From IMG/VR virus record IMGVR_UViG_3300002171_000008, positions 272-64,271 of that record: DNA of 64,000 bases; one strand, given 5' to 3'. This DNA comes from a virus (Duplodnaviria; Caudoviricetes). The position numbers and the translations under genes were made by a program. Each line of letters begins with the position of its first letter. Position 1 is the first letter of the stretch. Shown here piece after piece: positions 1-64,000 of the stretch. Under the pieces are notes generated by a model that saw only the letters and a program-made list of their open reading frames with translations, did no database searches and was not told where the DNA came from.

Positions 1-343
1 AGAGGCAAACCCGCAATACCGGGGCTTCAAGGCCGGCATTATCATTTCCAAAGGCGATGAGCTGACCTACCGTGAGGGCACATTCCAGCGAAAGGGCGAA
101 ACCCTGGAGGGCGGATGGTGCGAAGTCTACCGGGCAGATCGCGATGAGCCAATTAGGTCAGAAGTCTCATTGGTCGAATATGACAAGGGCTTTGGGCTAT
201 GGGGTCAGGGTAAGAAAGCAACCATGATCAGAAAGGTAAGTGTAGTCCAGGCGCACAGAGAAGGATTTCCGACCGATCTATCCGGGTGCTATGACAGAGA
301 TGAGTTGGGCATTGATCCATCTAATGAGGTGTCGTCTACATGA
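1..343 (+). CDS. bet: 3' part of Bet/RecT-family recombinase (partial copy of 59180-60043)
   Basis: Same sequence as 59701-60043. Confidence 0.85.
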   Translation, partial: EANPQYRGFKAGIIISKGDELTYREGTFQRKGETLEGGWCEVYRADRDEPIRSEVSLVEYDKGFGLWGQGKKATMIRKVSVVQAHREGFPTDLSGCYDRDELGIDPSNEVSST

Positions 344-480
344 GAGTCAAATGCCCAACATGTGACGGATTCTGCAAGGTCCGGGATGAGCACATTGTGT
401 ACCCGGCACCATATGAGCGTGCGAATTCCCCGCTCGTGGTTTGTGAAACGTGTGGCGGTAATGGGTGGGTGGACCAATGA
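340..480 (+). CDS. Small Zn-finger protein (CxxCxG...CxxCxGxG, DnaJ-CRD-like), 46 aa
   Basis: Hand translation MRVKCPTCDGFCK...VCETCGGNGWVDQ; ATGA overlaps at both ends. Confidence 0.7.
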   Translation: MRVKCPTCDGFCKVRDEHIVYPAPYERANSPLVVCETCGGNGWVDQ

Positions 481-1238
481 CGCCTCCCATTTTTCACCTA
501 GATGACGAAGTGGAAACGGCCAACGGAACGCGATTCGAGATATCGCAGATCTGGAAGAGAAAAGACGGCTCTTTCTGGTATGCACGCGAAGGAATGTGCT
601 ATCATCCTGCCAGCTCCCTTCGATTGGTGGAAGAGCTAAAGATATGCGATTATGTGCAAATTGTTGGCCTATCCACGAGCGGTGATGCTAACTTTCCCGG
701 TACAATCGGGCAAATCGAGCGAACTGTGGGCACCAAATTCATAGTCGATAAATCTCCATATTTCTATCCACCAGAGAGCCTGCGAAAGCTCACTCCGGAA
801 GAAGTGCAAGCCCATCGGAATCCCGGAAAACCTACATACGAATATCCAATCACACCAGCAAAAGATTTTGATGATTTGACTCTCAGAGACATTGCCCGGA
901 TGTCTGGCATCTGCAAAAACGAGCATGGTGTCTGGATAAGTACTTTACTTGGAAGGGCACATAAAAACGAGGAGCGGCTATCTGCCATCGAGAAGCAACT
1001 GGAAGAGCAACAGGAAAAGATCGGTCAATTCAATGGAGAGATCGGCCACTTGATCGGATCAATTCAAGAATGTCTGATAGAAGCCGGGAATGTCGAAGCA
1101 AGGACGAAATGCCGCGAAATGGAGATCGAGAAACGCCTTGCCTTTGTCGAAAAAATCCAACGCGACCAAGACGACCTGATAGGCCGCGCAATTCGGGACG
1201 GAGTGGTTGAGATACTGGATTTTAGGAGGAAAGCATGA
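477..1238 (+). CDS. Hypothetical protein, SH3/KOW-like N-terminal modules plus C-terminal coiled coil
   Basis: ORF track; start moved to ATG 477 overlapping the upstream stop. Confidence 0.7.
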   Translation: MTPPIFHLDDEVETANGTRFEISQIWKRKDGSFWYAREGMCYHPASSLRLVEELKICDYVQIVGLSTSGDANFPGTIGQIERTVGTKFIVDKSPYFYPPESLRKLTPEEVQAHRNPGKPTYEYPITPAKDFDDLTLRDIARMSGICKNEHGVWISTLLGRAHKNEERLSAIEKQLEEQQEKIGQFNGEIGHLIGSIQECLIEAGNVEARTKCREMEIEKRLAFVEKIQRDQDDLIGRAIRDGVVEILDFRRKA

Positions 1239-1561
1239 ACCAGATACTCTTCTCCCATTTTTATTCCAAGTTCCCTCGTGATTACCAATATTCCAAGCTA
1301 CTTCAGGTACTACCTATCCAGCTTGCAGAGCTATCCCCGGAATTTAGGCGATACGATACGACTTATCTCGATGGTGGAGAAGAAAAACAATATCCTCTGC
1401 CAGCCAAAGGCAACTATATGCTCCTCCTATTGCAGGGCGGATCTGGTCATGGGAAGCTGTGGACTACCATTAGGTCGCAGACAGGAAAGGGTGGCTTGGA
1501 CAAAATGACATATTACAAGTCTCTTGTGGGTGAAATATTTGAGTGCGATGTGGTAGAATGA
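1235..1561 (+). CDS. Hypothetical protein
   Basis: ATGA overlap with upstream gene, GGAGG SD. Confidence 0.7.
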   Translation: MNQILFSHFYSKFPRDYQYSKLLQVLPIQLAELSPEFRRYDTTYLDGGEEKQYPLPAKGNYMLLLLQGGSGHGKLWTTIRSQTGKGGLDKMTYYKSLVGEIFECDVVE

Positions 1562-1873
1562 CCTGGACAGATGAAGACGTTGTATTGATCGCCGGGATCG
1601 CTGGCATAATCGTGGCAGCATGCGTCGCTTACATGCTCGGTTACTGGGATGGCTATCATGCTATCTGTGTGGGAGGGCAACCATGAACGATGAGTTCTAT
1701 CTATCCAGAAAAGAGTTCGCTGCAATGCAAAGTTTCATGGGAGGGCATGACCATGATAGATTGTTCTGATTGCCCGGACCTGAAATGCGAATATTCCCTG
1801 AACCTGATCTGGTATTGCAAACATGATGCGGCGCACACGAGTTGTAACAAGATGCTAATGCCGGGGGGAAAGG

Positions 1874-2632
1874 ATGCACGAAAAAATAAAATGTTGCATG
1901 GCTCCTGGTGAAGCCTCCCGTGAACAGGATTTGCGGATTGCGCTTTCACATGATCCGCGATTCGAGCCGCTACAGATCGATTCATCCATTCCGGTAGATG
2001 TCCAGTTTACAGGAACTCCCCGATACATCGGGCACGATCTCATGGGAGATGAATATGTTGTAAATATATTTAACTGTGAATTAAAAGAATGTTCCGACTA
2101 CATTTCATCCGCATTAGGAAAAGATGGTCACCTATATTGTCAGCATCTATCCATGAGGGAATCCGGCCATCCCGCGATGATCCTGGTTCTTGGTAGCGAC
2201 CTAGATGTCTCAAATGCAATCATAGACTCATTGCAGACCAGGTATAGAGGAAAAGAGCTTGCATTCCAGATTAGCAACTATGAAGCCAGATTGCAGGACT
2301 TCGAAGCTAGGTCGTTTGCTAACGGAATTCCTGTCATGAGGTGGAAGGCTCATCCATTTAGCCGGTTGCTCTCAACCGCGGCTCAGGTGTTGGGCGATCC
2401 ATCCATGATGGGGTATGGCCCGAAGCCTGCAAATGGAGAACGGGATTTGGTGGCGGCAAGCCTGTTATTTCGCGGTATAGGGGCGAAAACACTGGAGCCA
2501 GTCATGTCAGAATATCGGCTTGCTCTTGTGCCGAAGGGCGAATATGCCAGGCAGCCGCTAGACATGGATGGCATAGGACCGAAGAGGGCAAAGCTGATTG
2601 AAGAGAGAATAGTGATGCATTATGTCAGATGA
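1874..2632 (+). CDS. ERCC4/XPF-like structure-specific nuclease with C-terminal HhH motifs
   Basis: ELKECSDYISSALGKDGHLYCQ resembles the ERKxxxD..S..DG.L..Q signature; GIGAKT and GIGPKRA HhH hairpins. Confidence 0.65.
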   Translation: MHEKIKCCMAPGEASREQDLRIALSHDPRFEPLQIDSSIPVDVQFTGTPRYIGHDLMGDEYVVNIFNCELKECSDYISSALGKDGHLYCQHLSMRESGHPAMILVLGSDLDVSNAIIDSLQTRYRGKELAFQISNYEARLQDFEARSFANGIPVMRWKAHPFSRLLSTAAQVLGDPSMMGYGPKPANGERDLVAASLLFRGIGAKTLEPVMSEYRLALVPKGEYARQPLDMDGIGPKRAKLIEERIVMHYVR

Positions 2633-2660
2633 TAACAAGCCGGGTTGGGATGGTGTATAA

Positions 2661-2918
2661 ATGATTATATACAAATATCAATTGGTATTGGTAGAATCTC
2701 AATATGTGGCAATGCCAGAGGGCGCCAATGTTTTGTCAGTCGGATTGCAGAACGGAATTATTACCATTTGGGCCAAAGTTAACCCCAACAATCCGAGCAT
2801 TGCGTACGCATTTTATATTGTGGGCACCGGCGGCGAAGTGCCTGGCAACACTGAATTTATAGGAACTGTGATGCAAGATAGATTCGTCTGGCATGTATTT
2901 CAGGGGCAATCTACTTGA
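2661..2918 (+). CDS. Conserved viral hypothetical protein (IYKY...MP.GA.VLSV...GTG...GTV..FVWHVF family)
   Basis: Motif pattern of a widespread small phage family. Confidence 0.7.
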   Translation: MIIYKYQLVLVESQYVAMPEGANVLSVGLQNGIITIWAKVNPNNPSIAYAFYIVGTGGEVPGNTEFIGTVMQDRFVWHVFQGQST

Positions 2919-3122
2919 GTCCAATTGATAAGCTGGTTGGGAAATCTGCATTGGATAGATTCTCTACGTTGATTACGATTTTCCTCGCTGGATTAAGTTT
3001 CGGCATTGGATTCTGGTTGGCGTATAGGTGGGTTGCATGAATACCGAAACTGAATTCCTCCTGCTATATGTGGGCAGCTTGGTAGTTATATTTTTCATAG
3101 GATTTGCATTGGGGCGGTATCT

Positions 3123-3386
3123 GTGAAAAAATCTGAGCTAGAGGTCACAATCGATGCATTGCGAAAAGAAAACAACAACCTAATTACAGAACTGCTAACC
3201 TTCCAGCCAAAAGCAATCGCCCTGATCAGAGAACGAGATATGATCTTTGACAAAGCCCCATTTCACAAGCCAACCAATGCGGCAGAAGAGTGGCAGGATC
3301 TGGCATTTTGGCTATATACCTATATATGCGAAATGGATTCGCTATGTAGGAACTCAATTGAGGAGGATGAATCGTGTTGTGCTTGA
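3123..3386 (+). CDS. Hypothetical protein
   Basis: ORF track, co-oriented cluster. Confidence 0.55.
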   Translation: MKKSELEVTIDALRKENNNLITELLTFQPKAIALIRERDMIFDKAPFHKPTNAAEEWQDLAFWLYTYICEMDSLCRNSIEEDESCCA

Positions 3387-3486
3387 AATGTCGGCGCTAT
3401 TGGGTGTATTTGGATCACCCAAACGTGTGCCCGGATTGTGGCGGGCCATTGGGAAAGAAAGAATTGGTCACGCGGATACGGATTAG

Positions 3487-3795
3487 GTGGTTAATATGAT
3501 AGAGCCCACTTCCAGATTATTGCATTCCATCGAAAAAGACAACCAGACCCCCGAGCTACGGACCCTCATCTTGCAAAAAGAGATTGCTCAGGTGGGCTAT
3601 AGGTTGGTCAGATGCCATAGGACGCCACAGGACGCGGCCATATATATGGCTGATATCGGGCTTGAAATCGGTCACGCAATGGTACAGCTCGAAATGCTGG
3701 CATTGGATCTCGGATTGGCGCCGGAAGACTGCAAGCAATTGGGATTAGCAACTACCTGGCAACGTTTCAAGGAGTTTTGGCCAAATGATGATTAA
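3487..3795 (+). CDS. Hypothetical helical protein, possibly degenerate MazG-like
   Basis: EIGHAMVQLEMLALDLGL resembles the MazG ExxD helix; AGGTGG SD. Confidence 0.5.
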   Translation: MVNMIEPTSRLLHSIEKDNQTPELRTLILQKEIAQVGYRLVRCHRTPQDAAIYMADIGLEIGHAMVQLEMLALDLGLAPEDCKQLGLATTWQRFKEFWPNDD

Positions 3796-4183
3796 TTATG
3801 GCGGTTGTGTCCCCCTATCATGCATCGACTATCCAGGCTTCGCCGCAATGACAATATTTTTACGAGGTTGTCATGTGCACTGCCCCGGCTGTCACAACAA
3901 ACATCTGTGGGAAGGCAGCGATATGCGGGATGAGAGCGAAATTTTCCAAATGATAGACTCGGCAGGTGACATGATAAGTGCGGTCGTCATCAGTGGCGGA
4001 GAGCCACTTGAGCAGCCGGATGCAATCAGGTCCATTTCACAGTATGCTCATGGAAAGGGCTTGCTTGTCGGTCTGCATACCAGTGGGCGCGGTGATCTGG
4101 CAGATGTGATCGAGTGCGCCGATATGATCCTATTATCGCGACCGGAACGGCAACCCTGGAATGCGGGGGAACCTACATGCTAA
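3785..4183 (+). CDS. nrdG: Radical-SAM NrdG-like (anaerobic RNR activase-like) protein, short
   Basis: IFLRGCHVHCPGCHN (CxxxCxxC), VVISGGEP, N-terminal GG.VPLS.IDYPG. Confidence 0.75.
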   Translation: MMINYGGCVPLSCIDYPGFAAMTIFLRGCHVHCPGCHNKHLWEGSDMRDESEIFQMIDSAGDMISAVVISGGEPLEQPDAIRSISQYAHGKGLLVGLHTSGRGDLADVIECADMILLSRPERQPWNAGEPTC

Positions 4184-4258
4184 ATCATGGCAGTCGTCCC
4201 GCCACCAAGCACAAAGGTCACAAGCAGGCTAGTAAGGAAATATCGAGGTGAATTGTAG

Positions 4259-4540
4259 ATGAATAGAGATGAGTTTCGCCGCACAATAGCGGCGGCTGGG
4301 TTATACGATCATATAGAAGAAATTGAGAATTGTATCGTTGGCATGACAGAAACGCGTTTTGCACCCGACCAAATCGGAGAACTCCGCGAAGCTGCGATAC
4401 AATATCTGTGCGTTTGCACCGATTACAAAAAGCTTCGGGGCTTCTTGGTTGAATGCGACAACCTGAATAAATCTTATTGCCTGTCGTGGGATGAATCGGT
4501 CGCGATTGTGATTAGGATTGTAGCGGGGTGGGCCACATGA
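4259..4540 (+). CDS. Hypothetical protein
   Basis: ORF track, GAGGTG SD. Confidence 0.6.
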   Translation: MNRDEFRRTIAAAGLYDHIEEIENCIVGMTETRFAPDQIGELREAAIQYLCVCTDYKKLRGFLVECDNLNKSYCLSWDESVAIVIRIVAGWAT

Positions 4541-4776
4541 ATGCCACCTCCTCAATTGGCTGGTATCTTCTGGAGCACAAGATAGATCCGGCCATCTTAT
4601 CCGGCTTTCCAAAACGGCTGTCCGAGCTACCTCCTCACCTGGTCACGAGGTTGTCTGCCAATGGCATGATCCGGAAGCATGAGCGGGTTCGGGATAGGAA
4701 TTGCTATAGGTGGTTGTGGGCGGCCGGGCCGAGGTTGCCGGGATTGTTGTGCTGGATGGGTAAGCGAAAACGTTAA
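4537..4776 (+). CDS. Small winged-helix-like protein (paralogous to 40956-41402)
   Basis: SELP..L..LS.N..I......W pattern shared with the 40956 ORF; ATGA overlap. Confidence 0.5.
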   Translation: MNATSSIGWYLLEHKIDPAILSGFPKRLSELPPHLVTRLSANGMIRKHERVRDRNCYRWLWAAGPRLPGLLCWMGKRKR

Positions 4777-4777
4777 C

Positions 4778-4783
4778 TTTTTT
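4778..4783 (+). terminator. Archaeal-type T-tract terminator
   Basis: TTTTTT directly after stop codon 4776. Confidence 0.45.
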
Positions 4784-4807
4784 CTGAATAGTAAGCGATT
4801 GTGCTTA

Positions 4808-4825
4808 CGTAAAAGCTTAAATAGT
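4808..4825 (+). promoter_or_regulatory. BRE-TATA promoter driving the pentamer array cassette
   Basis: cgtAAAAGC-TTAAATAGT; expected TSS ~4845-4850 coincides with the array start. Confidence 0.65.
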
Positions 4826-4846
4826 AATAGATGCTACTATACATTA

Positions 4847-5254
4847 GATGAGGTGCGTCTAGTCGCGTTGAGTCTAGGTGGCCTTGTTGCAGCGGGGCAG
4901 TTGCGGTTAGTCAAGTCCGGTCCTGTTATGTAGGGTCGACGCATGGCAGTTCCGTTGGGTCAGGGCAAGTCGGGTCAAGGCGGTGTATGGCTAGGCAGTT
5001 GAGGTTCGGCACGTCGTGTCTTGTTACGTATTGGCAAGGCAGTTTCGGTAAGTCGTGGCTAGGTAGGCACGGCAGCCGAGTTAGGTCGGGTCGAGTTATG
5101 TCCTGGTAGGGCGCGGCAGTTCTGTCATGTCCAGTCCTGGATAGGTGTGTCATGGAAGGCAGTTAGGTCAGGTCTTGTCGCGTCCTGCTCAGGCATCACG
5201 AGTCGCGGCAGTCGTGTTCAGTCATGTTGTGTTGAGTTAGGCATGGCAAGGCAG
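4847..5254 (+). ncRNA. Putative precursor of multiple guide-like RNAs (VIPR-like)
   Basis: Non-coding periodic array between a promoter and a RAMP-like gene; RNA function is inferred. Confidence 0.65.
4852..5254 (+). repeat. Array of 9 units made of GKY-NN pentamers separated by GGCA
   Basis: GGCAG at 4896, 4945, 4994, 5038, 5071, 5115, 5158, 5207, 5250; 54 of 62 full pentamers in units 2-9 start GTY or GGY. Confidence 0.92.
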
Positions 5255-5273
5255 TCTATAGGAGAGATAACCA

Positions 5274-5903
5274 ATGGTTACAAAAGCAAAGAAAACTGAG
5301 GTCCCTTCGGGGCCTATAACTTTGAAAAGAATAGAACTAAAGACATTGGAAATACCCATCATTGGTATTAGCGAACTCATAGTTCACCAATGGTCCGAGA
5401 AGGCCAAAAGGCAAATGCTAGAGAAGCAAATGGCTCCCGGCATCAAAAGTAAACGCGAAGCCAAAGACCCCATAGCAGACTATGAAAGCACAAAATATAA
5501 GATGGCAGACGGCTCAGATGGATTCCCGTCAGTGGCCTTCAAGCAGGCGATGGTTGATGCTCTGAGATTCTACGAGGGAGTTACTATGGTCATGGGCAAG
5601 ATGGCATTTTTCGTAGAGGGCGATCTAATAAAGATCGAAGGCGAACCCCGGATGAGGGAAGATATGGTAAGGCTGGAAACTGGAGTTGCAGATATCAGGC
5701 ACCGGGCCGGTTATCCCAACTGGTCTGCGATGCTCACCATAACCTACAATCCTGAACTACTCACGGCGGAATCTGTATTGGCCCTGGTAGATGCGGCGGG
5801 CCGTATGGTGGGCGTGGGCGAATGGCGGCCATCTAGTAAGAAGAGGACGGGGCCTTATGGAAGGTTCCAGGTTGATGATAGCAGGTCGGTGGGGCGAACA
5901 TGA
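5274..5903 (+). CDS. Stand-alone Cas7/RAMP-like RNA-binding protein (Vipr-like candidate)
   Basis: LEIPIIGISELIVH (beta1), GFPSVAFKQAM (cf. IPGSSLKG), DIRHRAGYPNW, Gly-rich GVGEWRP...GPYGRFQV; GGAG SD at 5261. Confidence 0.75.
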   Translation: MVTKAKKTEVPSGPITLKRIELKTLEIPIIGISELIVHQWSEKAKRQMLEKQMAPGIKSKREAKDPIADYESTKYKMADGSDGFPSVAFKQAMVDALRFYEGVTMVMGKMAFFVEGDLIKIEGEPRMREDMVRLETGVADIRHRAGYPNWSAMLTITYNPELLTAESVLALVDAAGRMVGVGEWRPSSKKRTGPYGRFQVDDSRSVGRT

Positions 5904-6412
5904 AGAAAACATATGCCTGGAAACGCAGCATGTCACTGAATGCCGAAGTAGCAGGCACGATATTTGAGCGGATAACAAAGGAGCGGGGAAAACTGATTCC
6001 AGCTTACCTGGTAGAAGAAGCTAGACCAGATCAGTCGCCTTTGCATAATCTTTTTGAATGGGATGACACAATTGCCGCCCAACTGCATCGGGAAGAGCAG
6101 GCCAGATCAATAATCAGATGTCATGTGGTTCTGTTGTGCCCGGATGAGACCAAAAAAGAAGACGTGCCCATCCAGGTCAATGCCTCAAATTCTACCAGGT
6201 CTTTCGTGAATATCCGGCAACCAAACGGCGAAAAGAATTATGTCGCTATCACGGTCGTGATGGAAGACGACGCGATGAGGGAGCAATACATCAGAAGAGC
6301 CTATCAGGAACTTAACGATTGGGCAATCAGATACAAATCGATCACGGCATTTGCTGAAATCATTGGCATGATAAAGAAAACCAATCTTAATAAGATTTTG
6401 GCGGTGAAGTGA
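5900..6412 (+). CDS. Conserved viral partner protein (SPLH..FEWDD..AA...R..QAR..IR family)
   Basis: Family motif recognised; ATGA translational coupling to the RAMP-like gene. Confidence 0.75.
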   Translation: MKKTYAWKRSMSLNAEVAGTIFERITKERGKLIPAYLVEEARPDQSPLHNLFEWDDTIAAQLHREEQARSIIRCHVVLLCPDETKKEDVPIQVNASNSTRSFVNIRQPNGEKNYVAITVVMEDDAMREQYIRRAYQELNDWAIRYKSITAFAEIIGMIKKTNLNKILAVK

Positions 6413-35738: not shown

Positions 35739-36874
35739 TGGCAACACATTATGCACAATTTCACGGCCTGGATATCTCGATGGAGCTGGATCGAGACGGC
35801 ATGGACTCTGGCGGAGGCAACCGGAAAACCGATTCATACAGCCTGCCAGGTTGGAACAAGTCCGAGATCTCCGACGAAGGCCGGGACACCACTACTTACA
35901 GCGGCGAAATCCACAGCTACGAAGTAGCCGACATCCAGACCATTGTAGAGGAGTTCAATCGGGCACCCGAAGATGTGGAATTCTACCCATTTGACGAGGA
36001 TTATCACATATATGCGGCTACTGCCTCAGCCCGCTATGCCAGGTCGCTTGCTTGTGTGAGAAATGCACTCGATGCAAACTATTATCACGGCAACTTTGAA
36101 ATCACATGCAGGGAACCGTTCAAGTTCACTGCAAGACAGGGACTATTATATGACTCAGATGTCAGCCTTCCCGCGACAAGTAGTTCGATAACCGCAACCG
36201 GGGCGGATGGCAACACGATAAATTACCTTATGATGTCAGGCGACTATGACGCCGGGTACACGAAAAAAGTATATTTAACAGTAAATAAAACCTGGCTGCT
36301 CCTGATTAACCAAATGATGGCCGGGGACTGCTTTGAGCTATCCAGGTGGGGGGAAGTTTGCCATTCGTACACTGTGAATTGGCGCGCCCTAGCAACATTT
36401 GCCGAACTGCAGAATGACCTATGGGGGGGTGGATTCTGCACTGGTGGCGTGCTAGGTGACGATTTGCTAACCTTCACATCAGGCCATATCATGTTCCCAT
36501 TTAGCGGCCCGTTGCCGTGCGCGGATAGCCCGGCACCCAAGCTGGAGTTCTTTGTAGAGTCGGGTGCTCCGACTATATGGAGAGCATTTGAAGCCGACCT
36601 AAGCGACAAAGAAGAGGTAGACATCGACATCAAGGCAGGGCATAACTCGATTGAGATCCCTGGTTGCGATGGGCACTCATTTGTTTCCATCGGCCTGTAT
36701 GGGACTTTTTCGGTATCGAGCCTGTATGCCGAGGTACACCGCTACATAGCAGAATCGGAGCTGCCGGTTGTTGATGCGGGCGACGTGTTCACCATCCAGG
36801 TATCGGATGGTGCTATCTCTAATCATTCGTTGAGACATTTGGTAGCTGACTATTGCGATAAATTTTGGTGGTAA
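35735..36874 (+). CDS. Distal tail (Dit-like) protein
   Basis: Position; YSLPG...EGRD...YSG N-terminus. Confidence 0.4.
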   Translation: MMATHYAQFHGLDISMELDRDGMDSGGGNRKTDSYSLPGWNKSEISDEGRDTTTYSGEIHSYEVADIQTIVEEFNRAPEDVEFYPFDEDYHIYAATASARYARSLACVRNALDANYYHGNFEITCREPFKFTARQGLLYDSDVSLPATSSSITATGADGNTINYLMMSGDYDAGYTKKVYLTVNKTWLLLINQMMAGDCFELSRWGEVCHSYTVNWRALATFAELQNDLWGGGFCTGGVLGDDLLTFTSGHIMFPFSGPLPCADSPAPKLEFFVESGAPTIWRAFEADLSDKEEVDIDIKAGHNSIEIPGCDGHSFVSIGLYGTFSVSSLYAEVHRYIAESELPVVDAGDVFTIQVSDGAISNHSLRHLVADYCDKFWW

Positions 36875-36877
36875 TTA

Positions 36878-37891
36878 ATGGATAATGGAACTTATTGGAC
36901 TCTAGTGAACGCCTGCCGACCAGGCCCGACCGGCAGCGATGCGACGGCAGCCGATACCGGTGCGTGGGTCACAGCTACAACATACAACGAAAACGACCGG
37001 TGCACTCATGCCAGAAGTGGGCACGGCCAATCGGTGTATAGGTCGAAATCTACCCATCTATCTGCCGCAACAAGCGAGCCAGAAGTAGGTGGGACATGGG
37101 GGACCTATTGGGAGCTGTGGTGTGAAGGTGGAGAGGATGGGGCTGGAAGCGGGGATGTAACTTGTTCATCCGCATCAGTTGCAAACCAGTTGGCCGCATT
37201 TTATGATACGGGCGGGAAGCGGATCAAGCCATTGGTGGCAACTGAAAACGACGTATTCTTTAATAATCTAACTGCAATGTCTGCCGATGTTGATCCTGAT
37301 GCCGATTATGTAAAATTATTTGATAACTCTGCTCTGACCTATCGAAAATGCCTGACTAAAAAAATTCATAGGTCCACTGACACAATCTCCCTGATGTCGC
37401 AGGGCATCTGGAAACGGGCCGGTTATTTGCCGAGCGGAGCACCCACTAGTCATGATTTGCCAACAACCAGATTCGACTTGAAGGCTATCACATTTGGGCA
37501 TTCCGCAATCTCATATGCCAATTGCTCTTTCGTCATGCCGGACAGTTGGGATGGGGGTACCCTGACCGCAACCTTCCTAGGTACAACACCCACCGCTACT
37601 GCCGGAACCGTGCGAATGGCCATCAGTGGTCGAATGGCTGCCGATGGGGAAAGCTGTGATGTGGCGGGCAGCACGCTGGCAGGTGTCACCATGACGACCC
37701 ATGAGGCCGCCTATTACATGATATATTCTGATCCGGTGAGCTTCACCCCGGCGGCGCATGTTGCCGCTTCTAGAGCGGGCGGGAACAAAATCATGTTCCA
37801 GATCTGCCGGTATGTGACCTATGAGGACACATTGGCCGAGGACTTTTGGCTCACAGATGTAGTCATCCGGTATGGGGTGGGCGATGACTGA
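36878..37891 (+). CDS. Tail fibre/receptor-binding-like protein with carbohydrate-binding-like module
   Basis: GAWVTATTYNENDR...YW module; MPDSWDGG domain. Confidence 0.55.
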   Translation: MDNGTYWTLVNACRPGPTGSDATAADTGAWVTATTYNENDRCTHARSGHGQSVYRSKSTHLSAATSEPEVGGTWGTYWELWCEGGEDGAGSGDVTCSSASVANQLAAFYDTGGKRIKPLVATENDVFFNNLTAMSADVDPDADYVKLFDNSALTYRKCLTKKIHRSTDTISLMSQGIWKRAGYLPSGAPTSHDLPTTRFDLKAITFGHSAISYANCSFVMPDSWDGGTLTATFLGTTPTATAGTVRMAISGRMAADGESCDVAGSTLAGVTMTTHEAAYYMIYSDPVSFTPAAHVAASRAGGNKIMFQICRYVTYEDTLAEDFWLTDVVIRYGVGDD

Positions 37892-43508: not shown

Positions 43509-44243
43509 TCAGTCTTCTTGTTCTATCCTCGGCGCGAGCAGGTAGCTCACAAATATATTTTCTCCGATATTCAAACTAACCCGGCAGGGATAATCTACTC
43601 CAGTCTCGATTTTAATAGAATTTTTTGCAAAGACCCTAGCCATGTTGGGATATAGATAATCCAGGCTGAATAGCGCCCGGCTAACTCCATGCTTCACGCC
43701 GGTAAGCTCGGACAGGGCAAACTCCACATTTGCCGAGTCGATATCGCCCTTTGCTGAGATGGAAAACTTCTCCTCATCCTGTTCAAAGATGGCATGGTCT
43801 GCCACCTTTTCAACCGCTCTAACCGCATCCTGAAAGTCACTCCCCCGCATAACGATCTCACATGGCATATCCAGTTGTGGGATACGTGGCCCTGCCTTGA
43901 TGCTGGTTGGGTCGATTAGGGACATGTTATATTTTGTTTTGCCCTGAGAGATTTTTAGCCGGTGCGTGGCTTCATCGAGTTCTATTGATACTGGTATGTC
44001 CTTTATGTCCGTGTATTTCTTCAGAGTGACCAGACTCATTGCCAGGTCTAGCTTTCCGGCCTGGTAAAAGTCGAATGCTTCCCTTTTGGCCTGCATGAAG
44101 ACCATAGCAACGTTTGATGGGTCCACCGCTTCAATGCGGAAGCCATTCTCGTCTATCTGGAGCTTGATGTCATCCTCGACTACGGCTTCGATTGCGTCAA
44201 TGATGTCTTTTAGGATGGATTGTTTTATGACGAATTTGAACAT
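43509..44243 (-). CDS. pcn: PCNA sliding clamp
   Basis: AVDPSNVAMV, ALFSLDYL, YLLAPRIE; 244 aa. Confidence 0.93.
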   Translation of the reverse strand: MFKFVIKQSILKDIIDAIEAVVEDDIKLQIDENGFRIEAVDPSNVAMVFMQAKREAFDFYQAGKLDLAMSLVTLKKYTDIKDIPVSIELDEATHRLKISQGKTKYNMSLIDPTSIKAGPRIPQLDMPCEIVMRGSDFQDAVRAVEKVADHAIFEQDEEKFSISAKGDIDSANVEFALSELTGVKHGVSRALFSLDYLYPNMARVFAKNSIKIETGVDYPCRVSLNIGENIFVSYLLAPRIEQED

Positions 44244-44494
44244 TTAGATCACCTTTAATTCAAATATCAGATTGCTTTCAACCATGAGCTTTTCTAGTAC
44301 ACTTGGCAGCGTTTTTTGAACTTCTTCAGTTAGCTTTTTGTCAAAATTCTTTTAAACTGATGGTAGATTCTTTCTCCCATTCTCTGATGATTGTATCCCA
44401 TCAGTTCTATGCAGTCATCGCATATTTTTATCTTTGAGCCGGAATGGTTAAATTTGCTTACCGGATGTTCTCGTTCACAGATTTTACAAAACAT

Positions 44495-45979
44495 TTACTC
44501 CACTTTCTCGAATTTAAACAAGTCCACTTGCTTAGGTTCGTTCTCCTCTTCATCAGCAAACTTGAATAGATCAACCTGCCGAGGTAAATCGCCCTCTCGA
44601 TTGGCTTGGTTCAAGTAATCGCAGGCCTGGTCGAAGTAGGACTTCTTCAACTCAAACCCTATGAAGTTCCTATGTTTTCTCACGGCAGTATATCCTTCCG
44701 AGCCAATGCCAGCGAACGGACTTAAGACCGTGTCACCTTCGTTAGTCCACAGTTCAAGGCAACGATCTATCAGGCCTAATTGTAGCGGGCAGATATGTTT
44801 TTCATCTTCATACTCTCTGACAGATTTATTATTTAGGGTGTCTGTCTGCAAGATATCCATCCACACGGGATCGGCGTACTTTTGCCAGGCAGGAAGCGGT
44901 ATCTCCGACTCGCTGCCTTCAGCATGAACTATCGGTTCTGCATTGTCGCCCGGCTTTCGCATGGTGATTACATAGTCAGCTAATCCTTGCCGTGAGATAC
45001 TGGAATCTTGTTTGAGCTGCTTATAGAGTAGGCCCTGAGTCTTGGTGCGGTACATTTCGGTGACAGGCGACTTGTAAATAGTCACACGGCTGTGGTAGTG
45101 AAATCCTGCTTTCTCAAATACCTTGATCAAATGCCCTGGTAAGTCCTGGAGGCCGGCAAAGCCATCTTTATACTTGAAGGCAGGGATATCGGCACAATGG
45201 AAGGACATTAGTCTGCCAGGTTTTAGGATCCGGTATAACTCATCCGCCACGTATCCCATATGGGCCTCAAATTCTTCCATTGAACGAGAGTTTCCAAGAT
45301 CTTTATTGCTATTGCTATAGACGAATATGTTCTTGAAGGGCGGGCTATAGATCTCATAGTGGACCGATTCGCTTTCAAGCTTTCTCATTTCGGTGACGCA
45401 ATCCCCTAGATACATCTTCCAGTTCTTGCCTTCTTTCGTCTCTGGTTTGTAATCATCTTGCTCTGTTCTGGTTGCTTTCAGGTTTTCAGAGCATATTTCT
45501 TGAGTTGCAGATATCATACCGCTTAACATCTCCTGGAATTTCTTCTCTTTCTTCTCAATGTTCTTTACTACCGCGCCCTCAGACTCTGAGGTTATGACAT
45601 ATACATCAACTGGTTTGGTTTGGCCGAATCTCCAGCACCGGCGCACGGCTTGATAATATTGCTCAAAACTATCCGACAGGCCCGTAAATATCATCTTGTG
45701 GCAGCATTGGAAATTGAGCCCGAATCCGAATATTGATGATTTGCTTATTAATATTTTAATATTACCATTTGCAAACTCCTTAGCAGCTTGCGCCTTCTTT
45801 TCAGGTTCGTCTGCTCCTCTGATCTCAGTGCTCCCTGGAATGGCTTTCTTCAGGGCATCAGCTTCCACATTCAGATCGCACCAAACTAGCCACTGCCCAT
45901 CTAATGAGTTGACTATCTCGGCAACCTTGGAAACTCGTTGCTCTAAGCTATTTCTCCTAGCCCCTCTGCGATCCTGCAA
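44495..45979 (-). CDS. Helicase C-terminal domain fused to beta-class N4C/N6A DNA methyltransferase (helicase ATPase domain missing)
   Basis: GFGLNFQ and QAVRRCWRFGQ helicase motifs; YSPPF and SPFAGIGSEG MTase motifs. Confidence 0.8.
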   Translation of the reverse strand: MQDRRGARRNSLEQRVSKVAEIVNSLDGQWLVWCDLNVEADALKKAIPGSTEIRGADEPEKKAQAAKEFANGNIKILISKSSIFGFGLNFQCCHKMIFTGLSDSFEQYYQAVRRCWRFGQTKPVDVYVITSESEGAVVKNIEKKEKKFQEMLSGMISATQEICSENLKATRTEQDDYKPETKEGKNWKMYLGDCVTEMRKLESESVHYEIYSPPFKNIFVYSNSNKDLGNSRSMEEFEAHMGYVADELYRILKPGRLMSFHCADIPAFKYKDGFAGLQDLPGHLIKVFEKAGFHYHSRVTIYKSPVTEMYRTKTQGLLYKQLKQDSSISRQGLADYVITMRKPGDNAEPIVHAEGSESEIPLPAWQKYADPVWMDILQTDTLNNKSVREYEDEKHICPLQLGLIDRCLELWTNEGDTVLSPFAGIGSEGYTAVRKHRNFIGFELKKSYFDQACDYLNQANREGDLPRQVDLFKFADEEENEPKQVDLFKFEKVE

Positions 45980-46082
45980 TGTCAGCTTGAAAAGTAAACA
46001 GCTTCGAATTTACATCAACGGCTTGAAATCCGCTAGGTTTTGCCTTAAACTGTTTAGATTCCAAGAACGCTTCATAATCCAT
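45957..46082 (-). pseudogene. Orphaned N-terminus of the helicase-MTase gene (41 aa, out of frame)
   Basis: MDYEAFLESKQ...SGF...LFTFQADI with GAGGTGA SD; junction at ACATTG. Confidence 0.65.
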
Positions 46083-46578
46083 TGCTTATCACCTCTAATC
46101 TAAATTGGTGCCATTCATTGTCCGACAGTGAGCCGAAATGAAACGCGGCGTGTTTCCTCTGATTGGGAAATACTACCAAATTCGACACAGTGTTATTCTT
46201 TTTGTTACCATCTATATGATGAACCGTTTCGCCTCGCTTTAATTTTCTGCCTAATACTTTCTCAGCAACTATTCTATGTTCATGGATTGCCCCGATCTTT
46301 CTATATGTATTAGGATTTACAGATTCTTTGCGCCACGCGAAATAACACGGTATAGAGCAGAATGAATGAATCTTTTCGCCCATGTCCTGCTCCGCGAAGT
46401 GCCGATAAAACACTTTATGGCATTGTTCGCACTCTATTTCAGATCCATGTTTCTGAGACTCTGTTAAGCATTTCCGAGAGCAGTAAGTCTTTCCTTTCTT
46501 TATTTGGCATTGCAACCTATAGAAAGTCTTGTTGCATATCGGGCAAACCAAAGCAAGCCGTTCTTTTTTAGGTGGCAT
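46072..46578 (-). CDS. HNH endonuclease with CxxC...YCS modules
   Basis: HEHRIVAE...VHHIDGNKKNN..SNL. Confidence 0.85.
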   Translation of the reverse strand: MPPKKERLALVCPICNKTFYRLQCQIKKGKTYCSRKCLTESQKHGSEIECEQCHKVFYRHFAEQDMGEKIHSFCSIPCYFAWRKESVNPNTYRKIGAIHEHRIVAEKVLGRKLKRGETVHHIDGNKKNNTVSNLVVFPNQRKHAAFHFGSLSDNEWHQFRLEVISNGL

Positions 46579-46754
46579 TTTTATCCTCTACCAGAAGCTT
46601 AACATTTTTCCGGCAACTTGGACAGCTTACATAGGCTGGTATGCCTTCGACTGATTTCTTTTCTCCAGAATAATCCCATTCCCATTTGCATCTTGGACAT
46701 ATCACGGCTTATCACCAATAAGTAATAGTCAGTAATAGTATTTATAGGTTTCCC

Positions 46755-47582
46755 TTATACAAAATGGTCTAGCCTGGTAGGCATTTCCGCTATCCGTTTC
46801 CTGGCTATTTCGCAGTATTTCGCTTCCTTCTCGATCCCTATAAAATGCCTTCCAGTGTTCCGGGCCGCTATGGCCGTTGTGCCTGAGCCGATGCAGTTAT
46901 CCAAGATCAGATCGCCTTCGTTTGTGTAAGTCTTGATGAGATATTCAAAGAGAGCTACAGGCTTTTGAGTGGGATGAGAATTTTTATTATCCACATTAGG
47001 AAACATCAAAACCGATTGAGGGTAATTGGTTGCTTCTTGGATGAAATCTTTCTTTCTGGATGGTCGCATTCCATAAAGTTCTGAAGCCTTCTTATCACGG
47101 TTTGGCCTATGTGTCATTTTGCCAAACGGTATAAGTCCTTGTGGAAAGTAATTCATTCTATTATCGGTGCATGATGGATGATTGATAGATCCTTGTGAAA
47201 AGACCAATACGTTTTCATGTGCTTTGAGAGGCGCGTTTTTGGCATGAAATAAACCGGATGGTCTGGTCTTGGTCCATATCCATTCGTACTTAAACATCTC
47301 GATATTTCCCATAATCAAGATGGTAGTGAACGGTTGACTTGCGGTTAATACTATGCTTCCAGTTGATCTAATTAGCCTTTTATATTCATCCCAAAGAGGT
47401 TTAAGAGGGATAACAGCATCCCATTTGCATTCTGTTGTACCATAAGGCAAATCACATAAAATCATATCTATACTTTTATCAGGTATAGACGGCATGATTT
47501 CTAAGCAATCGCCTTTTATTATGGTGTCGATCATAACATCTTCTCCGATATAAAGAATAAAATAATTAAAAATAATACCCAA
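46755..47582 (-). CDS. Beta-class DNA adenine methyltransferase
   Basis: CDLPYG, HPTQKP, LDNCIGSGTT. Confidence 0.9.
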   Translation of the reverse strand: MGIIFNYFILYIGEDVMIDTIIKGDCLEIMPSIPDKSIDMILCDLPYGTTECKWDAVIPLKPLWDEYKRLIRSTGSIVLTASQPFTTILIMGNIEMFKYEWIWTKTRPSGLFHAKNAPLKAHENVLVFSQGSINHPSCTDNRMNYFPQGLIPFGKMTHRPNRDKKASELYGMRPSRKKDFIQEATNYPQSVLMFPNVDNKNSHPTQKPVALFEYLIKTYTNEGDLILDNCIGSGTTAIAARNTGRHFIGIEKEAKYCEIARKRIAEMPTRLDHFV

Positions 47583-59179: not shown

Positions 59180-60043
59180 ATGGTAACATTGCGCAAACAA
59201 GTATTAGTCGACGCCGCAAAAACCTATGCGGCAAATGCAGGAAAAGAAGTATCGATCAATGATGCGGGCGGCATATGTCTGCAACCAGGTGATATCCTAA
59301 TCTCATGTGTGGATGGAAAGCTGGAATGCAATGATCAGGTTACGAAGGAAGCCTTGGCTGAAATCATCATGGAGATGCCACAAGAGCCTCATGTAATGCG
59401 GTCGCCCGAAAGTAAGACAATCGCACCACATATGCCGAAAAAGTCCAATGGTGGGCAAATGAAGCCCGTTTCCGGGGCAATCCGAGATGTCCAAGTGGCC
59501 GAAATGACTTTTGACGACATCAGGAACTTCCTCTGCCCGGCGGCAAACGACAAAGACACGTTCATGTTCCTGAAATTATGTCAGGCTAGGAATTTAAACC
59601 CGTTCTGCAATGAGGCCTACCTGATCCCATATGAAGACAAGAAGTCTGGAGAGATTCGATGCTCTATGGTGGTAGGAAAGGAAGCCTTCATGCGGAAAGC
59701 AGAGGCAAACCCGCAATACCGGGGCTTCAAGGCCGGCATTATCATTTCCAAAGGCGATGAGCTGACCTACCGTGAGGGCACATTCCAGCGAAAGGGCGAA
59801 ACCCTGGAGGGCGGATGGTGCGAAGTCTACCGGGCAGATCGCGATGAGCCAATTAGGTCAGAAGTCTCATTGGTCGAATATGACAAGGGCTTTGGGCTAT
59901 GGGGTCAGGGTAAGAAAGCAACCATGATCAGAAAGGTAAGTGTAGTCCAGGCGCACAGAGAAGGATTTCCGACCGATCTATCCGGGTGCTATGACAGAGA
60001 TGAGTTGGGCATTGATCCATCTAATGAGGTGTCGTCTACATGA
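59180..60043 (+). CDS. bet: Bet/RecT-family single-strand annealing protein
   Basis: FLKLCQARNLNPF..EAYLI, GGWCEVYR, MIRKV..VQAHREGFP. Confidence 0.9.
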   Translation: MVTLRKQVLVDAAKTYAANAGKEVSINDAGGICLQPGDILISCVDGKLECNDQVTKEALAEIIMEMPQEPHVMRSPESKTIAPHMPKKSNGGQMKPVSGAIRDVQVAEMTFDDIRNFLCPAANDKDTFMFLKLCQARNLNPFCNEAYLIPYEDKKSGEIRCSMVVGKEAFMRKAEANPQYRGFKAGIIISKGDELTYREGTFQRKGETLEGGWCEVYRADRDEPIRSEVSLVEYDKGFGLWGQGKKATMIRKVSVVQAHREGFPTDLSGCYDRDELGIDPSNEVSST

Positions 60044-61573
60044 GAGTCAAATGCCCAACATGTGACGGATTCTGCAAGGTCCGGGATGAGCACATTGTGT
60101 ACCCGGCACCATATGAGCGTGCGAATTCCCCGCTCGTGGTTTGTGAAACGTGTGGCGGTAATGGGTGGGTGGACCAATGACGCCTCCCATTTTTCACCTA
60201 GATGACGAAGTGGAAACGGCCAACGGAACGCGATTCGAGATATCGCAGATCTGGAAGAGAAAAGACGGCTCTTTCTGGTATGCACGCGAAGGAATGTGCT
60301 ATCATCCTGCCAGCTCCCTTCGATTGGTGGAAGAGCTAAAGATATGCGATTATGTGCAAATTGTTGGCCTATCCACGAGCGGTGATGCTAACTTTCCCGG
60401 TACAATCGGGCAAATCGAGCGAACTGTGGGCACCAAATTCATAGTCGATAAATCTCCATATTTCTATCCACCAGAGAGCCTGCGAAAGCTCACTCCGGAA
60501 GAAGTGCAAGCCCATCGGAATCCCGGAAAACCTACATACGAATATCCAATCACACCAGCAAAAGATTTTGATGATTTGACTCTCAGAGACATTGCCCGGA
60601 TGTCTGGCATCTGCAAAAACGAGCATGGTGTCTGGATAAGTACTTTACTTGGAAGGGCACATAAAAACGAGGAGCGGCTATCTGCCATCGAGAAGCAACT
60701 GGAAGAGCAACAGGAAAAGATCGGTCAATTCAATGGAGAGATCGGCCACTTGATCGGATCAATTCAAGAATGTCTGATAGAAGCCGGGAATGTCGAAGCA
60801 AGGACGAAATGCCGCGAAATGGAGATCGAGAAACGCCTTGCCTTTGTCGAAAAAATCCAACGCGACCAAGACGACCTGATAGGCCGCGCAATTCGGGACG
60901 GAGTGGTTGAGATACTGGATTTTAGGAGGAAAGCATGAACCAGATACTCTTCTCCCATTTTTATTCCAAGTTCCCTCGTGATTACCAATATTCCAAGCTA
61001 CTTCAGGTACTACCTATCCAGCTTGCAGAGCTATCCCCGGAATTTAGGCGATACGATACGACTTATCTCGATGGTGGAGAAGAAAAACAATATCCTCTGC
61101 CAGCCAAAGGCAACTATATGCTCCTCCTATTGCAGGGCGGATCTGGTCATGGGAAGCTGTGGACTACCATTAGGTCGCAGACAGGAAAGGGTGGCTTGGA
61201 CAAAATGACATATTACAAGTCTCTTGTGGGTGAAATATTTGAGTGCGATGTGGTAGAATGACCTGGACAGATGAAGACGTTGTATTGATCGCCGGGATCG
61301 CTGGCATAATCGTGGCAGCATGCGTCGCTTACATGCTCGGTTACTGGGATGGCTATCATGCTATCTGTGTGGGAGGGCAACCATGAACGATGAGTTCTAT
61401 CTATCCAGAAAAGAGTTCGCTGCAATGCAAAGTTTCATGGGAGGGCATGACCATGATAGATTGTTCTGATTGCCCGGACCTGAAATGCGAATATTCCCTG
61501 AACCTGATCTGGTATTGCAAACATGATGCGGCGCACACGAGTTGTAACAAGATGCTAATGCCGGGGGGAAAGG

Positions 61574-62332
61574 ATGCACGAAAAAATAAAATGTTGCATG
61601 GCTCCTGGTGAAGCCTCCCGTGAACAGGATTTGCGGATTGCGCTTTCACATGATCCGCGATTCGAGCCGCTACAGATCGATTCATCCATTCCGGTAGATG
61701 TCCAGTTTACAGGAACTCCCCGATACATCGGGCACGATCTCATGGGAGATGAATATGTTGTAAATATATTTAACTGTGAATTAAAAGAATGTTCCGACTA
61801 CATTTCATCCGCATTAGGAAAAGATGGTCACCTATATTGTCAGCATCTATCCATGAGGGAATCCGGCCATCCCGCGATGATCCTGGTTCTTGGTAGCGAC
61901 CTAGATGTCTCAAATGCAATCATAGACTCATTGCAGACCAGGTATAGAGGAAAAGAGCTTGCATTCCAGATTAGCAACTATGAAGCCAGATTGCAGGACT
62001 TCGAAGCTAGGTCGTTTGCTAACGGAATTCCTGTCATGAGGTGGAAGGCTCATCCATTTAGCCGGTTGCTCTCAACCGCGGCTCAGGTGTTGGGCGATCC
62101 ATCCATGATGGGGTATGGCCCGAAGCCTGCAAATGGAGAACGGGATTTGGTGGCGGCAAGCCTGTTATTTCGCGGTATAGGGGCGAAAACACTGGAGCCA
62201 GTCATGTCAGAATATCGGCTTGCTCTTGTGCCGAAGGGCGAATATGCCAGGCAGCCGCTAGACATGGATGGCATAGGACCGAAGAGGGCAAAGCTGATTG
62301 AAGAGAGAATAGTGATGCATTATGTCAGATGA
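61574..62332 (+). CDS. ERCC4-like nuclease (duplicate of 1874-2632)
   Basis: Identical translation. Confidence 0.65.
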   Translation: MHEKIKCCMAPGEASREQDLRIALSHDPRFEPLQIDSSIPVDVQFTGTPRYIGHDLMGDEYVVNIFNCELKECSDYISSALGKDGHLYCQHLSMRESGHPAMILVLGSDLDVSNAIIDSLQTRYRGKELAFQISNYEARLQDFEARSFANGIPVMRWKAHPFSRLLSTAAQVLGDPSMMGYGPKPANGERDLVAASLLFRGIGAKTLEPVMSEYRLALVPKGEYARQPLDMDGIGPKRAKLIEERIVMHYVR

Positions 62333-63484
62333 TAACAAGCCGGGTTGGGATGGTGTATAAATGATTATATACAAATATCAATTGGTATTGGTAGAATCTC
62401 AATATGTGGCAATGCCAGAGGGCGCCAATGTTTTGTCAGTCGGATTGCAGAACGGAATTATTACCATTTGGGCCAAAGTTAACCCCAACAATCCGAGCAT
62501 TGCGTACGCATTTTATATTGTGGGCACCGGCGGCGAAGTGCCTGGCAACACTGAATTTATAGGAACTGTGATGCAAGATAGATTCGTCTGGCATGTATTT
62601 CAGGGGCAATCTACTTGAGTCCAATTGATAAGCTGGTTGGGAAATCTGCATTGGATAGATTCTCTACGTTGATTACGATTTTCCTCGCTGGATTAAGTTT
62701 CGGCATTGGATTCTGGTTGGCGTATAGGTGGGTTGCATGAATACCGAAACTGAATTCCTCCTGCTATATGTGGGCAGCTTGGTAGTTATATTTTTCATAG
62801 GATTTGCATTGGGGCGGTATCTGTGAAAAAATCTGAGCTAGAGGTCACAATCGATGCATTGCGAAAAGAAAACAACAACCTAATTACAGAACTGCTAACC
62901 TTCCAGCCAAAAGCAATCGCCCTGATCAGAGAACGAGATATGATCTTTGACAAAGCCCCATTTCACAAGCCAACCAATGCGGCAGAAGAGTGGCAGGATC
63001 TGGCATTTTGGCTATATACCTATATATGCGAAATGGATTCGCTATGTAGGAACTCAATTGAGGAGGATGAATCGTGTTGTGCTTGAAATGTCGGCGCTAT
63101 TGGGTGTATTTGGATCACCCAAACGTGTGCCCGGATTGTGGCGGGCCATTGGGAAAGAAAGAATTGGTCACGCGGATACGGATTAGGTGGTTAATATGAT
63201 AGAGCCCACTTCCAGATTATTGCATTCCATCGAAAAAGACAACCAGACCCCCGAGCTACGGACCCTCATCTTGCAAAAAGAGATTGCTCAGGTGGGCTAT
63301 AGGTTGGTCAGATGCCATAGGACGCCACAGGACGCGGCCATATATATGGCTGATATCGGGCTTGAAATCGGTCACGCAATGGTACAGCTCGAAATGCTGG
63401 CATTGGATCTCGGATTGGCGCCGGAAGACTGCAAGCAATTGGGATTAGCAACTACCTGGCAACGTTTCAAGGAGTTTTGGCCAA

Positions 63485-63883
63485 ATGATGATTAATTATG
63501 GCGGTTGTGTCCCCCTATCATGCATCGACTATCCAGGCTTCGCCGCAATGACAATATTTTTACGAGGTTGTCATGTGCACTGCCCCGGCTGTCACAACAA
63601 ACATCTGTGGGAAGGCAGCGATATGCGGGATGAGAGCGAAATTTTCCAAATGATAGACTCGGCAGGTGACATGATAAGTGCGGTCGTCATCAGTGGCGGA
63701 GAGCCACTTGAGCAGCCGGATGCAATCAGGTCCATTTCACAGTATGCTCATGGAAAGGGCTTGCTTGTCGGTCTGCATACCAGTGGGCGCGGTGATCTGG
63801 CAGATGTGATCGAGTGCGCCGATATGATCCTATTATCGCGACCGGAACGGCAACCCTGGAATGCGGGGGAACCTACATGCTAA
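63485..63883 (+). CDS. nrdG: NrdG-like radical-SAM protein (duplicate of 3785-4183)
   Basis: Identical translation. Confidence 0.75.
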   Translation: MMINYGGCVPLSCIDYPGFAAMTIFLRGCHVHCPGCHNKHLWEGSDMRDESEIFQMIDSAGDMISAVVISGGEPLEQPDAIRSISQYAHGKGLLVGLHTSGRGDLADVIECADMILLSRPERQPWNAGEPTC

Positions 63884-64000
63884 ATCATGGCAGTCGTCCC
63901 GCCACCAAGCACAAAGGTCACAAGCAGGCTAGTAAGGAAATATCGAGGTGAATTGTAGATGAATAGAGATGAGTTTCGCCGCACAATAGCGGCGGCTGGG

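Follow-up and report, generated by a model that had tools for sequence, protein, structure and literature searches.

We found that positions 4809-6412 of the window, the whole 64,000-nucleotide stretch of viral DNA analysed here, most probably hold a complete VIPR locus; the virus is tailed, and its probable host is Methanothrix. The parts of the locus would be a promoter, some eight or nine guide RNAs in a 'staggered' array, a vipr gene and a vap gene, and we put this reading at roughly 85%. VIPR (Viral Interference Programmable Repeat) is an already published kind of system, in which viruses wield a CRISPR-like weapon; it was introduced by preprints of 2026 (bioRxiv 10.64898/2026.04.26.720920, 10.64898/2026.04.26.720927, 2026.10.15.759431), and the locus in the window adds an example with an unusual G-U-Y scaffold. 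The first preprint describes a minimal RAMP protein (Vipr) with an accessory gene (vap); the vrRNAs consist of 9-16 pentamers, with GGY and a hypervariable NN in alternation. The NN pairs read double-stranded DNA while passing over one base in every repeat, as a rule the one at the codon wobble position, and rival phages or satellites are thereby silenced at the level of transcription (bioRxiv 10.64898/2026.04.26.720920). The same preprint describes 'staggered' arrays, in which guides overlap by 1 nt, as an architecture outside those confirmed by RNA sequencing, and it states that other VIPR types may use 'a related consensus' in the scaffold (bioRxiv 10.64898/2026.04.26.720920). In-depth study has so far covered only the type II VIPR of Escherichia and Pseudomonas.

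The viral setting of the locus is given by an IMG/VR record of 64,271 bases (64.3 kb), which is classed with direct terminal repeats. The window wraps around, in that bases 1-300 equal bases 59701-60000 (1-4300 against 59701-64000), a repeat after 59,700 bases. From this wrap and the direct-terminal-repeat class, it follows that the unique genome is about 59.7 kb long, with a terminal repeat of about 4.6 kb. The virus encodes an HK97-type capsid, an SPP1-type portal, a PCNA clamp, a Prim-Pol and two DNA methylases. On the minus strand (43509-47582), the PCNA-type sliding clamp adjoins a helicase-methylase fusion and a second N6/N4 DNA methylase; in L005, which is distantly related and whose VIPR locus is laid out in the same way, two such methylases also lie just upstream of the array. 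A 7.2-kb scaffold binned in a Methanothrix MAG (L147) carries a vipr fragment that is 90% identical over the part of the gene present on the contig, the same promoter block and a G-U-Y array. Because this scaffold has a near-identical locus and the virus encodes PCNA, the host is likely an archaeal methanogen, probably Methanothrix, although the binning of so short a scaffold is weak evidence. A small radical-SAM protein (CxxxCxxC) is encoded at 3785-4183, about 670 nt upstream of the array, and falls with QueE-like and anaerobic ribonucleotide reductase activase PHROGs; this gene would be consistent with an anaerobic host.

The array was recognized by a 5-base period nested in longer units that are delimited by GGCA. 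GGCAG occurs nine times, at 4896, 4945, 4994, 5038, 5071, 5115, 5158, 5207 and 5250, with spacings of 49, 49, 44, 33, 44, 43, 49 and 43, exactly as an earlier note on this DNA had listed them; at the rate in the rest of the window, 0.72 occurrences would be expected per 403 nt (Poisson P = 8e-8). That note had also proposed a spacing of 4+5n with occasional 1-nt deletions, and the rule holds, except that three units lack one base: of the eight delimiter spacings, five are 4 mod 5 and three are 3 mod 5. The count of full pentamers beginning with G (59 of 62) was reproduced, and the NN strings differ between all eight units as had been claimed. For the commonest scaffolds, the note had given 38 GTY and 16 GGY pentamers; we counted 39 and 14 among the 62, which leaves the pattern in place and alters the numbers trivially.

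The periodicity, which had been proposed for checking against shuffled sequence, is highly significant. Identity at lag 5 is 0.45, compared with 0.276 +/- 0.022 in 5000 mononucleotide shuffles (shuffle maximum 0.36; z = 8.1) and with 0.17-0.27 at off-period lags (about 0.22 background), and it is 0.39 at lags 10 and 15. When the whole 64 kb was scanned with sliding 200-nt windows, the top eight or nine for lag-5 excess all lay within 4751-5350. The predicted low entropy at the first three positions was likewise seen: in five in-register units of the window, positions 1 to 5 have 0.43, 1.25, 1.15, 1.85 and 1.98 bits. Pooling the window array with those of five relatives gave 401 in-register pentamers, in which position 1 is G in 94% (0.42 bits), position 2 is T in 65%, C in 17%, G in 16% and A in 2% (1.38 bits), position 3 is C in 67% and T in 26%, that is, a pyrimidine in 93% (1.16 bits), and positions 4 and 5 are near random (1.93 and 1.98 bits). 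The 5-base repeat is genuine.

A CRISPR array has identical direct repeats of 23-50 nt, unique spacers and cas genes nearby. Tandem Repeats Finder left the array unreported and detected no long repeat, because the copies are too dissimilar, with only three of five positions kept. A CRISPR array was rejected on this ground and because the common delimiter is merely 4-7 nt; the sole Cas-like gene at the locus is a solo RAMP. The earlier note had excluded a CRISPR array, a microsatellite and a coding repeat, and had likened the constant scaffold with free NN positions to an information-carrying guide. This interpretation is supported by the adjacent Vipr homologue and by published VIPR guides, which are built likewise.

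The array region (4852-5262) is intergenic and lies on the plus strand, as do all the neighbouring genes. Upstream of it is an AT-rich block containing TTAAATAG; here, a purine-rich stretch followed by TTAAATAG (4809..4824, plus strand) resembles an archaeal BRE/TATA element and lies about 25-30 nt 5' of the first pentamers, and no sigma-70 consensus was found. We infer a putative promoter at this element from its sequence. The block ...GCTTACGTAAA..CTTAAATAGTAATAGATGCTACTATACATTAGA is near-identical in the window, L001, L002 and the Methanothrix-MAG locus L147, despite the differing arrays downstream. The array opens with a leader, or unit 0 (4852..4895, plus strand), of degenerate pentamers ahead of the first GGCA, which a phase-tracking parse reads as GGTGC GTCTA GTCGC GTTGA GTCTA GGTG GCCTT GTTGC AGCGG.

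Eight candidate vrRNA units follow on the plus strand (4896..5249), starting at 4896, 4945, 4994, 5038, 5071, 5115, 5158 and 5207, and each consists of a GGCA tetramer and 5-9 pentamers of the form G-[T>G>C]-Y-N-N. The boundary motif between units is G[G/C]CA followed directly by GTY, and across such boundaries the pentamer register moves by -1, as expected for a staggered array. A terminal GGCAG (5250..5254, plus strand) closes the array, with TCTATAG next and then a ribosome-binding site, AGGAG (5260-5264); the 3' junction AAGGCAGTCTATAG(G/A)(A/G) is kept in the window, L001, L002 and L147. No terminator-like site was found between the array and the vipr gene (ATG at 5274), and an Rfam E-value scan of 4000-6000 returned no ribozyme and no other known RNA. 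A hammerhead-interspersed vrRNA array was rejected, as there is no ribozyme by Rfam in this interval and the units are too small for one. It is worth mentioning that the short 33-nt unit at 5038-5070 (GTTTC GGTAA GTCGT GGCTA GGTAG GCAC) is the sole unit retained, as variants, in the window, L001, L002 and L147; it could be a conserved guide whose target is shared, or may have a role in structure or processing.

Directly downstream of the array, the gene at 5274..5903 (plus strand) encodes a 209-aa RAMP/Cas7-like protein, which its sequence and its predicted fold identify as a Vipr protein. A profile of 34 homologues matches one solved structure, PDB 36pp_D, 'SUSP1 Vipr protein', at E = 7.8e-9, and a single-sequence search against SUSP1 Vipr gives E = 1.7e-4 (24.6 bits), with the similarity limited to about 50 C-terminal residues. 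In the alignment, R144 corresponds to the SUSP1 thumb residue R138 and GVGEWRP (180-186) to the G-loop GVGDWRP; the protein thus has the features of a Vipr-homologous minimal single-RRM RAMP with G-loop and thumb. The AF2 model (pLDDT 87, pTM 0.81) has its best Foldseek matches among Csm3/Cas7 subunits of type III and type VII CRISPR complexes (probability 1.0, TM about 0.5). No Pfam family was found for the protein, which belongs to phrog_4652 (function unknown), and a nucleotide search of 4400-6400 against GenBank phages returned no match. The subfamily comprises more than 2269 metagenomic clusters at 90% identity (E <= 1e-3). After the RAMP fold and the Vipr match, several other candidates were dropped: a TRAP-like ring-protein site, a gp32-like autoregulatory leader, a minus-strand Rho rut site, T7/T4 primase triplets, a switch-region-like R-loop tract and a ToxI-like antitoxin.

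The identity of the protein also bears on a type III toxin-antitoxin-like module, in which a toxin gene would be preceded by a ToxI-like array of antitoxin RNA. There is a superficial likeness in layout, with a promoter, tandem units of 33-49 nt and a gene for a protein of about 200 aa. However, the fold is RAMP/Cas7 rather than ToxN/AbiQ (Kid/MazF-like), ToxI-type units are near-identical whereas those of the window have merely a 3-nt scaffold in common, and the array is not separated from the gene by a terminator. Neither near-identical RNA repeats nor a ToxN/AbiQ-fold endoribonuclease is seen at the locus, and we consider such a module scarcely credible.

A conserved accessory gene lies beside vipr, with which it shares an ATGA overlap. 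The candidate vap (vipr-accessory protein; 5900..6412, plus strand) encodes 170 aa and has a homologue just after vipr both in Mycobacterium phage Donkeykong (gp50, E = 2e-14) and in L005, which derives from a 187-kb contig (E = 3e-16). It belongs to phrog_15946 (function unknown), its relatives in the atlas are viral 'hypothetical protein' clusters throughout, and it has no match in PDB or Pfam; its single-sequence AF2 model has a pLDDT of 42, at which no fold is assignable.

In the first five relatives (97% to 50% protein identity), a period-5 array stands directly upstream of vipr in every case. At least 579 loci in IMG/VR match the Vipr subfamily; 80 further loci from among them were inspected, and a period-5 array adjoins vipr or vap in about 77, lying either ahead of vipr or, in many, downstream of vipr/vap. 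The array is on the vipr strand wherever its strand is callable among the relatives, and array, vipr and vap co-occur across distant relatives with unrelated viral backbones. The scaffold in most of the 80 loci is G-G-Y; among the loci examined, G-U-Y is limited to one clade (the window, L001, L002, L003, L004, L014, L093 and L147). L003 and L004 have GCCA as the delimiter, with spacings of 4 mod 5 in 12 of 12. Other arrangements were also observed: L087, L056, L050 and other G-G-Y relatives have 150-190 pentamers almost without phase slips or GGCA tetramers, while in L014 (2950-3000) a G-U-C array downstream of vap ends in a GC-rich hairpin and a run of nine T resembling a terminator, and by its sequence looks like the end of an operon and not a leader.

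This distribution is also informative about whether the repeat has its function at the DNA level, for instance in replication (an origin or a primase-loading zone), in packaging (a site near terminase genes) or as an R-loop-forming G-rich tract. The sequence 5'-GTC is the T7 primase site and GTT the T4 primase site. In addition, the coding strand of the array is G-rich (G 151, C 80), the virus encodes a Prim-Pol, and candidate small and large terminase genes lie 2-3 kb downstream, all of which would suit a DNA element. However, the array tracks vipr, on the vipr strand where this is callable, rather than replication or packaging genes across unrelated backbones; relatives have GGC or GCC in place of GTC, with loss of the primase triplet, and the G skew is also lost in L003 and L004. 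Fast sequence turnover is ill-suited to an origin or a pac site as well, and a role as DNA appears very unlikely.

Turnover is evident among the closest relatives. L002 (92% Vipr identity) has the leader in near-identical form (two bases differ), units 1 and 2 (one base differs) and most of unit 3, namely its first six and a half pentamers, in common with the window; after these three base differences in all, the arrays diverge. L001 (97% Vipr identity) and L147 have only the promoter, the 3' junction and the short unit 4 variants in common with the window. The earlier note had held that its reading would suffer if the NN positions proved as conserved as the scaffold among relatives; in fact, NN turns over while the scaffold is kept, and NN is far less conserved. 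Judging from these comparisons, the arrays evolve by unit turnover.

We searched for targets of the guides in several sequence sets. Under the skip rule, no self-targets were found for the window guides in their own genome as compared with shuffled controls, the guides of relatives had no matches above shuffled controls on the window genome, and no guide targets were found in 369 kb of related VIPR loci. The published VIPR systems are likewise reported to lack self-targeting guides (bioRxiv 10.64898/2026.04.26.720920). An exact one-base-skip scan of IMG/VR with three 18-base guides gave 0 matches for unit 1, 1 for unit 2 and 3 (two independent) for unit 7, a number at about chance level, and the matches fall in contigs without any protein common to the window virus. 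Only the match in L008 has its skipped bases at the third positions of an open frame, which is shorter than 60 aa and possibly not a gene. Seeds of 22 bases from two long guides of relatives gave 0 matches.

On the host side, 101 genomes from the family of the Methanothrix MAG were scanned with up to 2 mismatches and a reversed-pattern control, and the real versus control matches were 4 versus 6, 18 versus 5 and 21 versus 2. About 15 of the 21 matches come down to a single conserved in-frame site, which lies in an Lhr-like helicase, and the independent clusters (about 23 real versus 13 reversed) are not convincing. Unit 7 (5158-5206) matches the helicase site (peptide SSVALQIDP) at 16 of 18 positions in about 15 genomes, and the site is a candidate target of this unit. 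At about 1501-1526 in L188 and L189, the between-genome differences at the site all fall on skipped (wobble) bases. The NN dinucleotide spectrum correlates with codon positions 1-2 of the virus genes (r = 0.77-0.82), above five other contexts; this is mostly base composition, with a residual r of 0.47, and r is 0.15 in 60 G-G-Y arrays with a noisier gene set. The resemblance is suggestive only.

The array RNA might be bound by Vipr and yet not consist of guides, either as a cis-acting leader that titrates Vipr or autoregulates vipr translation, or as a decoy for the Vipr of a competitor. The array sits in the 5' leader of vipr without a terminator ahead of the gene, and no target was found for any guide in the searches above, both of which would agree with such a role. 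One preprint describes phage-satellite competition that runs through vrRNA guides and solo vrRNAs that can redirect the Vipr of another element (bioRxiv 2026.10.15.759431), which would also agree. However, a leader role cannot be general, because many relatives carry the array downstream of vipr-vap. Near-random NN, a kept scaffold and unit turnover between viruses with 92-97% identity fit diversifying guides and would be needless for a sponge; we regard a non-guide RNA as quite unlikely.

In the preferred reading, the array as a VIPR guide array, the SUSP1 system suggests how the locus may work. The array would be co-transcribed with vipr, and the transcript would be cut at or near the junction of GGCA with the following G, releasing RNAs of 33-49 nt. 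GGCA would be a pentamer whose fifth base doubles as the G1 of the next guide, and this 1-nt overlap would account for the spacing of 4+5n. One Vipr protomer would bind each pentamer, with G1, base 2 and Y3 held in protein pockets and N4 and N5 exposed; the filament would then read double-stranded DNA as NN-x-NN-x, the skipped base usually being the codon wobble base, and would keep the matched gene from being transcribed; this gene would most likely belong to a rival virus or another mobile element. Processing at this junction, like transcription, binding and targeting in the clade of the window, is proposed by analogy with SUSP1. Cryo-EM of the SUSP1 system revealed one protomer per repeat, with H17 and D177 reading G1, R138 and W178 sandwiching G2, and a Y3 pocket that bars purines (bioRxiv 10.64898/2026.04.26.720927). 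Binding details of the window Vipr may differ, since position 2 departs from the G held between R138 and W178 in SUSP1.

What determines base 2 was approached by comparing proteins. The G-loop difference (D177 in SUSP1, E183 in the window) was rejected as the cause of the change from G2 to U2, because most GVGEWRP relatives are G-G-Y, and L014 has GVGDWRP yet is G-U-Y. The columns that best separate six G-U-Y from 55 G-G-Y proteins include I32, Q39, E50 and the thumb residues 134-136 (LET versus VGM). This correlation is confounded by descent, because the six G-U-Y proteins are one clade, and these residues are only a pointer to possible base-2 determinants. One might speculate that tail-less staggered G-U-Y arrays form a distinct VIPR subtype of Methanothrix viruses with altered base-2 recognition (candidates 134-136, and I32/Q39 beside the beta-1 His), in which at least one guide (unit 7) is aimed at the host Lhr-like helicase and not at a rival mobile element; we hold this combined proposal to be unlikely.

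The locus is a probable archaeal-virus example of VIPR and a clean case of a staggered array. A base other than G can evidently stand at scaffold position 2, a point of relevance to scaffold reading by the Vipr pocket and to the freedom of guide engineering. The Vipr subfamily is large and is present, unannotated, in well-studied mycobacteriophages.

As compared with the Class 1 CRISPR backbone, in which a Cas7/Csm3 filament is built on crRNA, Vipr has a like fold, one subunit per fixed RNA step and a base-flipping thumb. The step is 6 nt in Class 1 CRISPR and 5 nt in VIPR, where three of five guide bases are sequestered; unlike Class 1 CRISPR, the window locus is without repeat-spacer units, adaptation genes, other Cas subunits and a nuclease. 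The type II VIPR of Escherichia phage SUSP1 (PDB 36pp) has the G-loop GVG[D/E]WRP, the thumb Arg and probably the beta-1 His in common with the window, as well as the vipr-vap gene order and pentamer guides. However, each SUSP1 vrRNA is a transcript of its own, about 100 nt long, in which 9-16 GGY/NN repeats are joined to an invariant 3' tail (about 40 nt) that contains a pseudoknot, whereas the window units are 33-49 nt long, have 5-9 pentamers, are tail-less and are packed head to tail, with no room for a structured tail of about 40 nt.

Cultured phages with the same Vipr subfamily comprise 27 of Mycobacterium, 5 of Gordonia and one cyanophage record, and the actinobacteriophage homologues are 46-48% identical over more than 88% of the length. 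Mycobacterium phages Donkeykong, Brocalys and Saal, Gordonia phages ODay and Pipp, and others carry GGCA-punctuated arrays as in the window, but have the canonical GGC-NN scaffold and bacterial hosts. Their arrays in GenBank are unannotated or lie under a 'hypothetical protein' call. In Donkeykong (NC_051648.1, L011), where Vipr is 48% identical, is preceded by GGCNN pentamers punctuated by GGCA and is followed by a homologous vap, the 'gp48 hypothetical protein' (36870-37256; 1980-2366 of the locus) overlies the GGCNN array directly upstream of gp49, the Vipr homologue; this ORF was probably called in error across a vrRNA array. The Donkeykong locus lies in the immunity region and adjoins a repressor, an anti-repressor and an excisionase.

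The published staggered VIPR arrays are like the window in most respects: both have a viral Vipr and an accessory gene with an adjacent noncoding array of pentamers, each with a 3-nt scaffold and a hypervariable NN (bioRxiv 10.64898/2026.04.26.720920). In both, guides overlap by 1 nt, which is seen in the window as the GGCA tetramer and the spacing of 4+5n, and both are without CRISPR repeats, cas1/cas2 and ribozymes. Scaffold base 2 is G in the published consensus and mostly U (65%) in the clade of the window. In the YNNGG notation, the window scaffold is YNNGK, which is absent from the alternatives in the Methods (NNNGG, YNNNG and NNNNG), while the figures and tables of the source may cover it (bioRxiv 10.64898/2026.04.26.720920). 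The departure from G-G-Y lowers the fit of the window clade to the type II consensus, not to the family. The features that make the window VIPR notable beside these known systems are its G-U-Y scaffold, its tail-less staggered array and its probable archaeal host.
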